This document shows, one piece after another, positions 10,865 to 15,389 of a stretch of 64,000 nt of DNA. Under the pieces are notes generated by a model that saw only the letters and a program-made list of their open reading frames with translations, made no database searches and was not told where the DNA came from. Made by a program: the position numbers and the translations under genes. Source of the DNA: Thermoanaerobaculia bacterium (lineage in GTDB: Bacteria; Acidobacteriota; Thermoanaerobaculia; Multivoradales; Multivoraceae). The number at the start of each line of letters is the position of its first letter. The stretch's first letter is position 1. The stretch is from contig OY761158.1 in NCBI GenBank assembly GCA_963664405.1, positions 4,704,001-4,768,000 of the forward strand. Direction: 5' to 3'.

Positions 10865-12388
10865 GTGCGACCAAGACCATCCTCTCTAGGCGAGCTTCTC
10901 GAACGAGGCGCGGCGGACGATCCCGCTCTGTGCTCGCCCGACCAGAGCCCGCTCAGCTATTCCGGACTGCGCCGTCAAGTTTCTCTCACGGGCGAGACGC
11001 TGGGAAGGCTTGGCATCGGCCCTGGGCAGACTGTGGCCCTGGTCCTCGACAACGGTCCGGCGATGGCGTCCGCGTTTGTGAGCGTGGCGGCGTGCGCCGC
11101 AAGCGCGCCGCTCAACCCCGTCTACCGCGAAGAGGAGCTCGACTTCTATCTCGGGGATTTGGACGCGAGCCTTCTTGTCGTTCAGCCCGGCGCCGGCGAG
11201 GCGGCGCGGGCTGCAGCCTCCAAGCGGGGAATTCCAGTCGCCGAATTGATTGTGCCGGCAGGTGCAGCGGCGGGAGAGTTCGAGCTCGAAGGAGGTGGCG
11301 GAAGAGGTACGGCCGCGACTTCAGAGCAGGGTGGCACGAATTCAGCTCTGCTTCTTCATACTTCGGGCACCACCTCGAGACCGAAGATGGTGCCCCTCTC
11401 CCAACAGAACCTCTGTGCTTCGGCTTCCAACGTCGCCGAGTCGCTGGCACTCACCCCTGGGGACCGATGCCTCAATGTGATGCCTCTCTTTCACATCCAC
11501 GGCCTGGTGGCCGCCCTTCTCGCCTCTCTCGCCGCGGGTGCCTCTACCTTCTGCAGCCCCGGCTTTGATGCGCTGCGCTTCTTTTCCTGGCTCAGCGAGG
11601 CCGGTGCCACCTGGTACACCGCCGTGCCGACGATGCACCAGACCATCCTCGCCCGAGCGGCCCGCAACCGCGAAACTATCGCCGCGGCTCCCCTCCGCTT
11701 TCTCCGCTCTTCCTCGGCTTCTCTGCCGCCCCAGCTCATGGCTGCCCTCGAAGAGTGCTTCGATGCCCCGATGATCGAGGCCTACGGCATGACCGAGGCG
11801 GCTCATCAGATGACGAGCAACCCGCTGCCTCCACTGCCTCGGCAGATGGGCTCGGTCGGCCCCGCCGCGGGCCCCGAAGTGGAGATCATGGACCAGGCCG
11901 GCGAGCTCCTCGCGCGGAGTGAAGTGGGTGAGGTGGTCATCCGCGGCCCCAACGTCACCGCCGGCTATCTGAACAACCCCGAAGCGAACGCCACCGCCTT
12001 CGTCGACGGCTGGTTCCGCACCGGCGATCAGGGTGTGATCGACGAAGACGGCTATCTGCGCCTCACCGGCCGCCTCAAAGAGATCATCAATCGCGGTGGG
12101 GAGAAGATCTCGCCGCGAGAGGTGGACGAGGTGTTGCTCGACCATGAAGCGGTGGCTCAGGTCGTCACCTTCGCACGACCCCATCCCAAGCTGGGGGAGG
12201 ATGTGGCGGCGGCGATCGTGTTGCGCGAGGGGGCCGAGGTGACCCAGGCCGAGATCCGAGCCTTCGCGGGCGAGCGTCTTGCCCCTTTCAAGGTGCCGCG
12301 AAGCGTCCTCTTTGTCGACACCATCCCCAAAGGGCCGACCGGCAAGCTCCAGCGCATCGGACTCGCCGAGAAGCTCGGGCTGACCTAG
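10865..12388 (+). CDS. Acyl-CoA synthetase, oxalate-CoA ligase-like
   Basis: LLHTSGTTSRPKMVPL, NVMPLFHIHGL, WYTAVPTMHQ, EAYGMTEAAHQMTSNPLP, PKGPTGKLQRIGLAEKLG. Confidence 0.9.
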   Translation: MRPRPSSLGELLERGAADDPALCSPDQSPLSYSGLRRQVSLTGETLGRLGIGPGQTVALVLDNGPAMASAFVSVAACAASAPLNPVYREEELDFYLGDLDASLLVVQPGAGEAARAAASKRGIPVAELIVPAGAAAGEFELEGGGGRGTAATSEQGGTNSALLLHTSGTTSRPKMVPLSQQNLCASASNVAESLALTPGDRCLNVMPLFHIHGLVAALLASLAAGASTFCSPGFDALRFFSWLSEAGATWYTAVPTMHQTILARAARNRETIAAAPLRFLRSSSASLPPQLMAALEECFDAPMIEAYGMTEAAHQMTSNPLPPLPRQMGSVGPAAGPEVEIMDQAGELLARSEVGEVVIRGPNVTAGYLNNPEANATAFVDGWFRTGDQGVIDEDGYLRLTGRLKEIINRGGEKISPREVDEVLLDHEAVAQVVTFARPHPKLGEDVAAAIVLREGAEVTQAEIRAFAGERLAPFKVPRSVLFVDTIPKGPTGKLQRIGLAEKLGLT

Positions 12389-12397
12389 AGAGTGCCG

Positions 12398-13357
12398 ATG
12401 CGAGTCTGCATCTTCGGCGCCGGCGCCATCGGCTGCTATCTGGGAGTGGAGCTCGATCGGGTCGGAGTCGAGGTCAGCATGGTCGCTCGCGGCGCCCATC
12501 TGGATGCGATGCGCCGGAATGGCGTCGTTCTGCTCAGCGGTGACGATAAACGGGTGGCACCTATTGCGGTCAGCGATTCGGCGGCCGATCTGGGCCCCTG
12601 CGATGCTGTGATCGTCGCCCTCAAAGCGCACTCGGTGCCGGCTGCCGTGGGGTCGATGACGCCTCTGCTCGGTGATGATACGGCGGTTGTAACCGCCCAG
12701 AACGGCATTCCCTGGTGGTACTTCCATACCCTGCCCGGCCCGTGGGAGGGGCGGCACCTGGAGAGCGTGGACCCCGGCGGGAAGATCTGGGACACACTCG
12801 GCCCGGAGCGGGCGATCGGCTGCGTTGTTTACCCCTCGTGCGAGATCGTCGAACCTGGTGTCGTGCGCCATCTCGAGGGTCGGCGCATGATGCTCGGAGA
12901 GCCGGACGACAGTCGCTCAGAGCGTGTTGTGGCTCTCGCCGCCGCCTTCGGGGAAGCGGGGTTCAAGGCTCCAGTGAGACGGAGCATTCGCGACGACATC
13001 TGGCTGAAGCTGTGGGGCAACGTTGCGTTCAATCCTGTGAGCGTGCTCACCGGCGCAACTCTGGGCGAGATGGGTGCTCATGCGCCGACGCGCAAGGTAC
13101 TCCGCAGCATGATGGAAGAGGCGGCGGCGGTGGCGACCCGGCTCGGCGCTCGCTTCGCCGTAGACGTGGAGAAGAGGATCGATTGGGGAGCCGATGTCGG
13201 GGCGCACAAGACTTCGATGCTGCAGGATTTCGAGCGCGGGCGACCGCTCGAGTTAGGGGCGGTAGTTGGAGTCGTATCCGAATTGGGGCGGATGGTAGAA
13301 GCGCCGACACCGATGATTGATGCCGTTCACGCGCTCGTTCAATTACGAATGGGTTGA
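12398..13357 (+). CDS. 2-dehydropantoate 2-reductase family (PanE/ApbA-like)
   Basis: GAGAIG, AQNGIPWWYF, IWLKLWGN..FNPVS, HKTSMLQD. The pairing with an oxalate-CoA-ligase-like gene is a known arrangement. Confidence 0.9.
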   Translation: MRVCIFGAGAIGCYLGVELDRVGVEVSMVARGAHLDAMRRNGVVLLSGDDKRVAPIAVSDSAADLGPCDAVIVALKAHSVPAAVGSMTPLLGDDTAVVTAQNGIPWWYFHTLPGPWEGRHLESVDPGGKIWDTLGPERAIGCVVYPSCEIVEPGVVRHLEGRRMMLGEPDDSRSERVVALAAAFGEAGFKAPVRRSIRDDIWLKLWGNVAFNPVSVLTGATLGEMGAHAPTRKVLRSMMEEAAAVATRLGARFAVDVEKRIDWGADVGAHKTSMLQDFERGRPLELGAVVGVVSELGRMVEAPTPMIDAVHALVQLRMG

Positions 13358-13383
13358 CAAGACGGCAGCGCTTGCCTCATCAT
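13354..13383 (+). promoter_or_regulatory. Putative sigma70-type promoter
   Basis: Perfect TTGACA at 13354-13359 and a weak -10 (CATCAT) after an 18-bp spacer. Confidence 0.45.
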
Positions 13384-13519
13384 TTCTCCCATAGAAGCTC
13401 CGTCCACATCCGAATGTCGAGTGTGAGACGGCAGTCCCAGGGGGTTTGAGCGGCCTTAGGGGCTGGGCGGTATGGGTGCCGCCGATTTTTGTTTTCGCTC
13501 AGAAAGGAGGTGGTCCAAA

Positions 13520-13561
13520 GTGGATAGTCATAAACGTTTGTTGGAGGTGACCACCTTCTAG
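13520..13561 (+). CDS. Putative 13-aa peptide MDSHKRLLEVTTF
   Basis: GTG start just after an extended Shine-Dalgarno; TAG stop at 13559-13561. Confidence 0.45.
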   Translation: MDSHKRLLEVTTF

Positions 13562-13635
13562 GGAACCCGCCGCAAGCGAAGCCTTGAGGTGGGGGTTCCC
13601 CGACGAGGGAACCCATGGTCACCAAGGCAAACACC

Positions 13636-13668
13636 AGCCCCGGTCCTCTCAGGAGGCCGGGGCTTTTT
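13636..13668 (+). terminator. Intrinsic terminator
   Basis: AGCCCCGGTCCTC-TCAG-GAGGCCGGGGCT followed by a T-run. Confidence 0.85.
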
Positions 13669-13759
13669 ACTTTCTGAGGCGGGCCCCCAGAGGTGCCCCC
13701 TCCCCCGCGGCCTGCGATCCATCCCTATGCGCCACGCCTCGATGCTCGCAAAGAGAAGC

Positions 13760-13822
13760 CCCTCCCTTCCCTTACTCCCTTACTCTCTTACTCCTTTACT
13801 TCTTACTCCTCACTCCTCACTC
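13760..13822. repeat. Degenerate pyrimidine-rich tandem repeat (CTTACTCC / CTCACTC-like units)
   Basis: CCTCCCTTCCCTTACTCCCTTACTCTCTTACTCCTTTACTTCTTACTCCTCACTCCTCACTC has no G on the + strand. Confidence 0.7.
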
Positions 13823-13827
13823 GCCAA

Positions 13828-14571
13828 TCACGCCATCGTCAGACCGCCGCTCACGGACAGGGTCTGACCCGTGATGTAACCGGCCTCCTCCGAGGCGAGG
13901 AAGACGACGGCGTGGGCGACGTCCCGGGGCTGGCCCAAGCGGCGCATCGGTACAGCGCGGACCATCGAGTTGATCACCTTGTCACCCCCGGAGGAGGCGT
14001 CGACGATGCCCTTGAGTAGCGGCGTGTCGGTGGGTCCTGGGCAGACGGCGTTGGCAGTTATGGCGTAGCGGGCCATTTCTCGTGCGATGGTCTTGGTGAA
14101 GGAGATGAGACCGCCCTTCGCTCCGGAGTAGACGGACTCCAGCGAGGACCCGACTCTGCCGGCATCCGACGCGATGTTGATGATGCGGCCCCAGCCATTG
14201 TCGACCATTGCCGGCAACAGAGCCTTGGTGACCCGCATCGGTCCGGCGAGATTGATATCGAGAACTTTCTGCAGGAAGCTCTCGTCGACATCGAGGAAGG
14301 GCTTGAGCTCGTCCCATCCGGCACAATTGACGCAGATACCCGGCGCGCCGATCGCGGAAGTGACTTCAGCGGCCGCCTCTTCGACGCCGACCGCGTCGGT
14401 CACGTTCAAGGAAACCGCAATACCCCCGATCTCCTCGGCGATCTGGTCGGTCGCCGATCCGGGAAGGTCGGCGACGGCGACACGATGTCCGGCAGCCGCC
14501 AAGCGACGGCAAATCTCGGCGCCGATCCCTCCGGCACCACCGGTGACGAAGGCTACTCGTTGTTCTGTCAT
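13828..14571 (-). CDS. SDR oxidoreductase, 2-hydroxycyclohexanecarboxyl-CoA dehydrogenase (BadH)-like
   Basis: TGGAGGIG, VNCAGWD, NIASDAGRVGSS.E.VYSGAKGG, CPGPTDTPL, ITGQTLSVSGGLTMA. Confidence 0.85.
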   Translation of the reverse strand: MTEQRVAFVTGGAGGIGAEICRRLAAAGHRVAVADLPGSATDQIAEEIGGIAVSLNVTDAVGVEEAAAEVTSAIGAPGICVNCAGWDELKPFLDVDESFLQKVLDINLAGPMRVTKALLPAMVDNGWGRIINIASDAGRVGSSLESVYSGAKGGLISFTKTIAREMARYAITANAVCPGPTDTPLLKGIVDASSGGDKVINSMVRAVPMRRLGQPRDVAHAVVFLASEEAGYITGQTLSVSGGLTMA

Positions 14572-14594
14572 GGATCTCCCTACGCTTCTGGTAC

Positions 14595-15389
14595 TCACCG
14601 GTACTTGGAAAAGTCGGCTTCCCTTTTCTCGTTGAAGGCCTCCACTCCTTCTTTCGCCTCGTCGGTGTCGAGAAAGAGGTCCAGACTGTCGAAAGCCATC
14701 GAGCCGATCCCGGCGATCGATTCGCTGTCGGCGTTGAAAGAATGTTTGAGAACCTTCAATGCGGTGGGACTCTTGTCCAACATCTCGTCTGCCCAACGGC
14801 GAACCTCGGCGCCGAGCTCCGCGTAGGGAACGACCGAGTTGACGAGGCCCCAGCGCTCCATTGTGGCGGCGTCGTAGAGGCGGCACAGATACCAGACCTC
14901 CCGTGCACGTTTTTCACCGAGGATGCGAGCGAGATAGGCGCTGCCGAAGCCGGCGTCGAAGGAGCCGACCCGTGGACCCGCCTGCCCGAAGCGAGCGTGG
15001 TCGGCCGCGATCGTCAGATCGCACAGAACGTGGAGCACATGCCCGCCGCCGACAGCGACGCCGTTGACCGCCGCGATCACCGGCTTGGGGATGTCACGGA
15101 TGAGCCGATGCAGGGTCTCTACCTCGAAGAGGCCACTCTCGGTGGGACCGTAGTCGCCGGTCTCGAGGCGCTGCTTCTGATCGCCTCCGGCGCAGAAAGC
15201 TTTGTCGCCGGCGGCGGTCAGAACCACGACTCCGACCGTCGAGTCCGCCCAGGCGGTCTTGAAGCCGCGGATCAGCTCGTCGATGGTTCTACCGCGAAAC
15301 GAGTTGAATCTCTCGGGGCGATTGATGGTGATGGTGGCGAGGCCGTTCTCGACCTCGTAGAGAGTGTCTTGGAGATCAGGTTTGGTCAC
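14595..15389 (-). CDS. Crotonase-family protein, 2-ketocyclohexanecarboxyl-CoA hydrolase (BadI)-like
   Basis: AFCAGGDQ, GGGHVLHVLCDLTIA, GPRVGSFDAGFG, SFNADSESIAGI; adjacent to a BadH-like SDR. Confidence 0.85.
   Translation of the reverse strand: MTKPDLQDTLYEVENGLATITINRPERFNSFRGRTIDELIRGFKTAWADSTVGVVVLTAAGDKAFCAGGDQKQRLETGDYGPTESGLFEVETLHRLIRDIPKPVIAAVNGVAVGGGHVLHVLCDLTIAADHARFGQAGPRVGSFDAGFGSAYLARILGEKRAREVWYLCRLYDAATMERWGLVNSVVPYAELGAEVRRWADEMLDKSPTALKVLKHSFNADSESIAGIGSMAFDSLDLFLDTDEAKEGVEAFNEKREADFSKYR

Follow-up and report, generated by a model that had tools for sequence, protein, structure and literature searches.

The window analysed here is a 64,000-nucleotide stretch from a Thermoanaerobaculia bacterium (contig OY761158.1, positions 4,704,001 to 4,768,000), and it contains a small RNA element in the intergenic region between coordinates 13358 and 13827. 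The element is preceded by an open reading frame (ORF) on the forward strand that Pfam assigns to the PanE/ApbA ketopantoate reductases (12392-13357, +) and is followed by a convergent short-chain dehydrogenase (SDR) with its stop codon at 13828. A preliminary description of this DNA, made from the letters alone, had listed a TTGACA promoter, a hairpin at 13466-13483, an extended Shine-Dalgarno (SD) sequence, a GTG-to-TAG ORF and a terminator, and had noted that the next gene is convergent; all of these are present at those positions (Table 1). The locus is most likely a stand-alone, independently transcribed, single-copy gene of a folded RNA, the element is confirmed to lie far beyond chance expectation, and its conserved features suggest the ribosome itself as the partner of this RNA.

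The SD sequence, AGAAAGGAGGTGGTCCA, is unusually long. The organism's own single 16S gene ends in ...CTGGATCACCTCCTTTCT, and comparison of the SD with this 3' tail gives 16/17 identities, with the sole mismatch being a G.U, such that 17 contiguous pairs can form; the 16/17 match previously noted against the canonical 16S end thus holds for the organism itself. Both strands of the 6.78-Mb genome together carry 23,611 GGAGG-anchored sites, and none of these can pair with the 16S tail over a longer stretch, except for the antisense strand of the 16S gene. A second long-SD locus is present outside the window (G000:C1:4593052-4593190), where GGAAAGGAGGTGGTTCTG can form 16 pairs with the 16S tail and is directly followed by GTG and a 33-codon ORF; this locus is possibly a further case of a small ORF preceded by an extended SD.

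Relatives of the element are widespread. The central part was found by blastn in 13 of 40 related genomes, and a covariance model identified exactly one copy in 27 of them (19/24 from the same family and 8/16 from other families of the order). Of 401 genomes sampled across the phylum, 28 have a single SD plus GTG motif; 22 of these occurrences are elements and six are chance matches inside long ORFs. An exact scan using one genome per species (SD plus GTG, 18-33 nt, GAGGTG, 9 nt, and TAG or TAA) returned at least 120 loci. The 120 matches listed are labelled as Acidobacteriota-type (80), Binatia (13), Nitrospirota (11), Leptospira/Leptospirales (5), Myxococcota-type (2), and one each of Thermodesulfobacteriota, 'Deltaproteobacteria', 'Proteobacteria', Verrucomicrobiia and Gemmatimonadota, with four unlabelled; the labels derive in part from metagenome-assembled genomes and may be wrong. 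No actinobacterial loci are among these 120 matches, and the exact pattern would miss the actinobacterial consensus. There were no matches in viral contigs that would suggest a phage origin. Counts over 136 distinct copies refer to those left after loci L014-L018, L025, L039, L040 and L044 had been dropped as non-elements.

The 16S-complementary stretch is the most conserved part of the element. For most of the 136 copies the search patterns had prescribed positions +0 to +12 of the SD. The free positions -4 to -1 vary between A and G, remaining pairable with the 16S tail in 125, 130, 134 and 135 of the 136 copies, respectively, when the window's own tail is used as a stand-in for that of all species. 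The sole variable position inside the pattern (+11, C or T) pairs with G either way. Eight elements were found using the 3' half of the element alone, and all eight have the SD; the 3'-half pattern mostly matches by chance in GC-rich genomes, and these eight were recovered among 30 fetched loci. One set of chance matches is a shared repeated end, ..ATCTCGGAGTGCGG(T/G)GGCG(A/C)A.., on contigs C2, C7, C147 and C188 of genome G564, which is probably a dispersed repeat.

The mini-ORF downstream of the SD shows a strong conservation of its frame. The GTG and the TAG or TAA are in frame in all 120 of the loci listed by the exact scan even though any gap of 18-33 nt was allowed, and the frame is kept in 136/136 distinct copies, with lengths of 13-17 codons and gaps of only 21, 24, 27, 30 or 33 nt. 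In a minimum spanning tree built by edit distance from 110 distinct ORFs, 22 of the 109 edges alter the length, 19 of them by 3 nt and three by 6 nt. Of the eight elements found through their 3' half, six start with GTG, and in the other two the GTG is now GAG and there is an in-frame ATG one codon downstream. The internal SD-like GAGGTG is present at the 9-nt spacing from the stop codon in every element-like locus found without requiring the motif. The stop is TAG or TAA, and never TGA, in those copies found without a stop constraint (13 and 22 loci, in overlapping sets), whereas TGA ends 1431 of the 2689 long ORFs in this genome (53%).

The encoded peptide behaves differently. The ratio of nonsynonymous to synonymous change (pN/pS) over 80 tree edges and the 110 distinct ORFs has a value of 0.78 for the variable N-terminal part and 0.67 for the five codons at the C-terminal end, and the test for purifying selection on the peptide is negative, with amino acids changing nearly as fast as silent sites. 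The only invariant residues are E-V, and these are always encoded by GAG GTG and never by synonymous codons, which suggests a constraint on the RNA. The residues that follow E-V (A, T, V or P) vary in concert with the opposite strand of a long-range helix (P-LR), and many versions of the peptide contain Cys. These comparisons show a frame and length that are conserved and a peptide nearly free to change, and we think it probable that the frame is translated.

RNAalifold with 46 sequences recovered helices P1, P1b, P3 and P-LR, and a fuller structure drawn on a MAFFT alignment has nine helices and 45 pairs, including two pseudoknots (Table 1). In this structure 80.8% of the cells are paired, compared with 38-47% when partner columns are slid by 1-3 positions, and the covariation score is 0.260, compared with 0.075-0.116 for the slid versions; none of 500 shuffles reaches the observed values. 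P-LR, an 8 bp helix joining the last ORF codons to a strand ~65 nt downstream, is paired in 94.8% of cells, has two-sided changes at four pairs, and has a predicted pairing probability of ~0.99 in the window. Pseudoknot PK-A (two helices, 77.7% and 82.6% paired) is GAGCG:CGCTC in the window and GGGCG:CGCCC in most relatives; its support is probably understated because the alignment of the 5' domain is poor for the 11 non-Acidobacteriota rows. Four pairs of PK-B (74.7% paired) are supported; the fifth is unpaired in 35 of the 46 sequences, and the loop covariation holds for some sequences only. The P6 hairpin corresponds to a CCCC/GGGG hairpin in relatives, and a stop-codon hairpin is poorly supported in the MAFFT alignment (55.4% paired). 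Lineages lacking the 5' domain (those loci passing the Rfam cut-off discussed below, Leptospira and others) start a few bases 5' of the SD, and the core of the element therefore comprises the SD, the ORF, P-LR and the terminator.

The preliminary description had proposed mutually exclusive pairings, with three competing for the ORF 3' end and a further choice between two copies of GGGAACCC. All of these can be drawn in the window, and only the pairing of 13546-13553 with 13616-13623, which is P-LR, is conserved and covarying. The 11 bp pairing between the ORF 3' end and the SD can form in just two of 13 loci, the window and its closest relative, L002; in the window its probability is ~0.01 and it costs 3.7 kcal/mol relative to the minimum free energy, compared with 16.5 kcal/mol for the local hairpin at the ORF 3' end. 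Sequestration of the SD by the ORF 3' end is thus specific to this lineage, as is the choice between the GGGAACCC copies. The P3 hairpin has GATTTTTGTT after it in this genome alone (13466-13493), and this segment scores as terminator-like; the U-run is absent in relatives.

Table 1. Coordinates of the element, its predicted helices and the RNA contigs that match it. Percentages are cells paired in the alignment; two-sided changes are given as numbers of pairs.
Feature	Coordinates	Strand	Remarks
Sigma-70-type promoter	13354-13383	+	TTGACA 13354-13359, 18 nt, CATCAT 13378-13383
Predicted full transcript	13390-13672	+	~280 nt; from promoter and terminator positions
P0 hairpin, 5' domain	13400-13431	+	In minimum free energy and centroid folds; 74.3%; two-sided changes 4/5
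P1	13432-13438 with 13459-13465	+	82.6%; two-sided changes 6/6
P1b, enclosed by P1	13442-13445 with 13453-13456	+	81.5%; two-sided changes 4/4
P1b loop TTGAGCG	13446-13452	+	5' strand of pseudoknot PK-A
P3 hairpin	13466-13483	+	88.9%; two-sided changes 6/6
P3 loop ATGGGT	13472-13477	+	5' strand of pseudoknot PK-B
CGCTCAG	13496-13502	+	3' strand of PK-A; overlaps first 2 nt of long SD
Extended SD, AGAAAGGAGGTGGTCCA	13501-13517	+	
Mini-ORF	13520-13561	+	GTG at 13520, 12 sense codons, TAG 13559-13561; peptide MDSHKRLLEVTTF
Internal SD-like GAGGTG	13544-13549	+	Exactly 9 nt 5' of stop codon
Long-range helix P-LR, 5' strand GGTGACCA	13546-13553	+	In last ORF codons
P6 hairpin, GGGTTCCC / GGGAACCC	13593-13614	+	3' arm overlaps PK-B strand in the window
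ACCCAT	13611-13616	+	3' strand of PK-B; directly 5' of P-LR 3' strand
Long-range helix P-LR, 3' strand TGGTCACC	13616-13623	+	
Intrinsic terminator	13636-13668	+	Strong predicted hairpin
RNA contig, run X9	13404-13643		Depth 25.3
RNA contig, run X11	13405-13636		Depth 19.5
RNA contig, run X13	13408-13632		Depth 7.3
RNA contig, run X14	13411-13632		Depth 6.4

The element has the organization of an independent transcription unit. Its promoter is the sole sigma-70-like site within 12300-15000 (one compared with 0.3 expected), the TGA stop codon of the upstream panE-like gene sits within the -35 hexamer, and the predicted transcript has a folding z-score of -4.59. Alignment of 13 loci shows the promoter hexamers, the 5' hairpins, the long SD, a 13-15-codon ORF and the terminator all to be conserved; TTGAC(A/G) with a matching spacing to an xAxxAT -10 hexamer is present in 13/13, as is a GC-rich hairpin with a T-run at the terminator position. 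The flanking genes, which in the window are PanE and the SDR, are unrelated and change between loci. Upstream neighbours at other loci include RNase E/G, a class-IV aminotransferase, an AAA ATPase, a hydantoinase, an epimerase, a cyclophilin and an NrtR-like regulator; downstream there are a histidine kinase, a xanthine dehydrogenase, peptidases and others, and the downstream genes are unrelated in the 10/10 loci scanned. Among the 136 distinct copies there is no neighbour common beyond close kin, and PanE is a neighbour in just one of them.

Metatranscriptomic data provide a view of expression. There are 24 runs listed, of which 20 contain the stretch or part of it, and eight of those are recorded as RNA. 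Four RNA runs from two studies were compared over 12900-14100, and each has one whole contig of 222-240 nt that lies inside the element (Table 1). In these four runs there is no cover of the flanks at 12900-13391 or 13679-13842, and no extension into panE; outside the element, the runs match only in 36-nt segments of dehydrogenases from other organisms. The uncovered parts mark an absence of contigs and do not prove silence. The contigs fit a discrete and relatively abundant RNA extending from a start near 13390 to the terminator, and they pass through the terminator-like P3 hairpin. In three of the four runs there is a C>G difference at 13529 that changes His4 to Asp, the residue that several relatives have at the same place. 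The conserved promoter and terminator with changing neighbours, together with RNA contigs confined to the element, support the stand-alone transcript that had been suggested.

Several observations concern the surroundings of the element. The RNase E/G gene ends directly 5' of the element's promoter in 20 of the 136 loci (L005, L007, L011 and 17 more), all of them close relatives, and this adjacency could reflect a functional link or synteny alone. A class-IV aminotransferase gene adjoins the element or is ~1 kb away in three of the 136 (L004, L116 and L089, one of them labelled Myxococcales). Three ORFs overlapping the element (13380-13634, -; 13558-13722, -; 13584-13874, +) have no Pfam family and were rejected as protein genes; as to protein genes across the element, helix lengths differ between copies by non-multiples of 3. 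Between the terminator and the stop codon of the convergent dehydrogenase, at 13765-13820, there is a run of imperfect CTTACTCC-like 8-mers.

At gathering scores no Rfam family matches anywhere in the window, and a permissive scan gives mainly weak, terminator-driven matches (sX13, NsiR1 and others). Among these permissive matches is RF02471 (Ms_IGR-5, 'Actinobacteria sRNA', where sRNA denotes small RNA), positions 1-184 of which align with 13497-13670 at 15.2 bits (E 0.4-0.99), and this element is the best RF02471 match in the genome. Four of 16 related loci pass the RF02471 cut-off (L021, 60.0 bits; L019, 50.6; L109, 47.1; L084, 46.7). A model, R1, built from 43 relatives including these four and excluding the window and L002, matches the window at 13493-13625 with 75.7 bits (E 7.8e-19), the sole match in the 64 kb; it also matches Leptospira copies at 29-33 bits. 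The RF02471 consensus has the order ..AAGGAGGUGGUCC.. SD, GUGAGGUG plus 9 nt plus UAG, the CAGUCACC strand, and the terminator, and the same order is present in the window. On the strength of these sequence and model matches the element is very probably a divergent, 5'-extended relative of Ms_IGR-5. Membership of a known Rfam family, raised earlier as a ground for doubt, thus applies in part, in that the element is homologous to RF02471 and the window itself scores beneath the family threshold. A further such ground, a decayed rRNA-operon fragment, is ruled out by the lack of any rRNA family match in the window, by the covariation among relatives and by the R1 match.

The Mycobacterium smegmatis IGR-5 RNA is described as an NAD-capped sRNA, 'validated but yet uncharacterized', adjoining MSMEG_5795 (10.1101/2021.12.14.472595), and it was seen again in a cold-stress transcriptome (PMC10454040). 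Two Streptomyces species, S. lividans and S. avermitilis, also express members of the family (PMC8079986, PMC8780764), and Ribo-seq of M. abscessus and M. smegmatis yielded 'significant ribosomal reads' on homologues (PMC4974804). MSMEG_5795 is named in a paper on the aminotransferase Rv0812. The ncRv0810c RNA could not be tied to the Ms_IGR-5 family and was not used, and the Leptospira motifs of PMC8632094 are different ones. Our literature search, which covered papers without their supplementary files, returned no paper on the family's ORF, its long SD or its spread beyond Actinobacteria. The cross-phylum spread, the SD matching the full 16S tail, the conservation of frame only, the fixed internal SD, the UAG or UAA stop, and P-LR with its pseudoknots thus all appear to be unreported.

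Taking these features together, we lean towards the view that the element is a single-copy, ~280-nt relative of Ms_IGR-5 acting as a ribosome-engaging riboregulator. The docking and spacing arguments that follow use general knowledge of ribosome footprint geometry. The 30S subunits would dock unusually firmly through pairing with the entire free 16S tail, and the ribosome would then read 13-17 codons, with selection presumably keeping the binding and reading event rather than the peptide. Once the stop codon occupied the A site, the P-site codon would have the internal GAGGUG 6 nt behind it, at the usual SD spacing, and the 16S tail could re-pair there. A ribosome at the stop codon would have to open P-LR, freeing its C-rich 3' strand, which could also pair with the GGUGG in the SD. 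The RNA would thereby alternate between a closed form and a ribosome-opened form, with the end of the frame linked by P-LR to the strand downstream and, via PK-B, to the 5' domain. What such a switch delivers is more doubtful; as a tentative suggestion, the RNA may signal or buffer the supply of free initiating ribosomes, for instance if the freed 3' strand acts on the RNA's own SD or on other RNAs.

A broader proposal, which we offer as speculation and rather doubt, is that Ms_IGR-5-type RNAs form a multi-phylum 'ribosome-docking' class that holds the ribosome from start to stop and senses or buffers either the initiation-competent pool or release-factor activity. In RNAs of this kind an invariant sequence would pair with all of the free 16S tail, the frame after it would be fixed in geometry and free in sequence, and the second SD would re-capture the 16S tail with UAG or UAA in the A site, never the UGA read by release factor 2 (RF2) only. 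Each ribosome passage would flip a pseudoknotted switch, with nothing encoded or targeted, and the added 5' domain in Acidobacteriota and several other phyla would provide further control. Ms_IGR-5 has so far been listed in Rfam as an actinobacterial sRNA, and the same core is now seen, as one copy per genome, in genomes labelled as several other phyla, with a pseudoknotted 5' domain in many of these versions. If the riboregulator interpretation is correct, it would represent a new bacterial way of monitoring or tuning translation, and would give a role to a transcript that has been listed, but left unexplained, in several transcriptome studies.

A number of points weigh against this interpretation. 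The conservation of SD positions +0 to +12 is not independent evidence, and the independent check comprises only eight loci. The window's RF02471 score is below the cut-off of 45 bits. The covariance model finds nothing in 13 of the 40 relatives, several of them 98-100% complete, and the element is therefore dispensable or replaceable. The RNA contigs show neither strand nor true ends, and DNA can occur in RNA libraries. Parts of the SD are kept partly paired in the predicted nested fold, and pseudoknots lie outside the energy model. Finally, a pN/pS below 1 and the identical peptides in some clades leave room for a role of the peptide.

This last point bears on the idea that the transcript is an mRNA for a functional peptide of 13-17 residues, with the folds merely gating how much of it is made. 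Start, frame and stop are conserved in 136/136 copies, some clades have identical peptides across many species, pN/pS is less than 1, and Cys is present in many versions, all of which an mRNA would accommodate; however, the pN/pS values of 0.78 and 0.67 are far from typical protein constraint, the invariant E-V is always GAG GTG, the residues after it track the P-LR partner strand, and no conserved modification or export genes were found near the element among the inspected loci, and we regard a peptide gene as improbable. Of the two possibilities raised in the preliminary description, a 30S-capturing RNA or a gated micropeptide, the involvement of the ribosome is upheld by the SD pairing, the kept frame and the ribosomal reads reported in PMC4974804, and the micropeptide is weakened by the near-neutral peptide. 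An ordinary non-coding base-pairing sRNA, in which the SD-like stretch and the ORF would be structural or seed sequences and untranslated, accords with the dense RNA structure, with the filing of the family as an sRNA gene in Rfam and with the description of IGR-5 as an uncharacterized sRNA in published work. It does not account for all 22 length-changing tree edges being multiples of 3, for the in-frame ATG that replaces a lost GTG, for the lack of TGA stops in any stop-unconstrained copy compared with 53% of the genome's long ORFs, or for the ribosome-protected reads reported on homologues (PMC4974804), and we think it a little less probable still than a peptide gene.

An attenuator role was previously thought unlikely since there is no downstream gene to control, and the comparisons agree in showing no fixed downstream gene. 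A leader-peptide attenuator, or a long 3' untranslated region of the upstream gene, controlling read-through into the neighbours would be compatible with the same-strand gene that follows the terminator in roughly half of 22 inspected loci, with the gene start soon after the T-run in the L021-L023 group, and with the terminator-like 13466-13483 hairpin in the window. Nonetheless, the next gene in the window is convergent and downstream genes are unrelated between loci, the element has its own conserved promoter, the RNA contigs stop short of panE, and a conserved alternative to the terminator hairpin was not found; such control is very unlikely. Derivation from a decayed rRNA operon, or a chance match, might be suspected from the 16/17 bases of the 16S 3' end held on the antisense strand. 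It is already refuted: the window has no match to the small or large subunit rRNA families, the similarity is confined to 17 nt, and at least 136 genomes have the element, conserved with covariation; it is a single copy and lies far from the rRNA gene. A ribosome-engaging riboregulator is therefore ranked as most likely, above a functional micropeptide, a base-pairing sRNA and an attenuator.

Several known systems share parts of this organization. In the dual-function sRNAs SgrS/SgrT, RNAIII/delta-haemolysin and SR1/SR1P the peptide is functional and conserved. The element resembles them in being a small independent transcript that couples a structured RNA with a very short ORF template, and differs in that the peptide drifts and it is the frame, the length, the SD and the internal SD-like site that are kept. 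Transfer-messenger RNA (tmRNA) similarly embeds a short frame in a pseudoknotted RNA and has its stop codon within a small hairpin; the element has no tRNA-like domain (ARAGORN finds no tRNA or tmRNA genes in 13200-13900), and its SD and start codon imply normal initiation rather than trans-translation. The RF2 (prfB) frameshift site also has, inside a frame, an SD-like sequence whose short distance to a stop codon is fixed, whereas in the element the distance is 9 nt to the stop, there is neither a slippery site nor a downstream frame to enter, and the stop is UAG or UAA and not UGA. A riboswitch is not indicated, as no Rfam riboswitch family matches at E up to 10 in 13250-13900 and the gene context is unconserved. 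Leader-peptide attenuators and their released trans-acting RNAs, such as rnTrpL (PMC6614838), share a strong SD, a short ORF, a terminator and translation that is expected to remodel downstream pairing. The element lacks their fixed downstream operon, evident regulatory codons and a conserved antiterminator, and has its own promoter. The closest likeness is to Ms_IGR-5, in the layout from SD to terminator and probably also in being an independent transcript. Here the taxon labels of the relatives are Acidobacteriota-type, in contrast to the Actinobacteria of the family description, and in the structure annotated in RF02471 the SD is paired with the codons that follow GAGGUG and the CAGUCACC-type P-LR strand has no partner, whereas the covariation reported here supports P-LR; a weak form of the SD-sequestering pairing may occur in Actinobacteria. 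The element further differs in adding a ~100-nt 5' domain, comprising P0, P1, P1b, P3 and the two pseudoknots, that lies outside the Rfam model.

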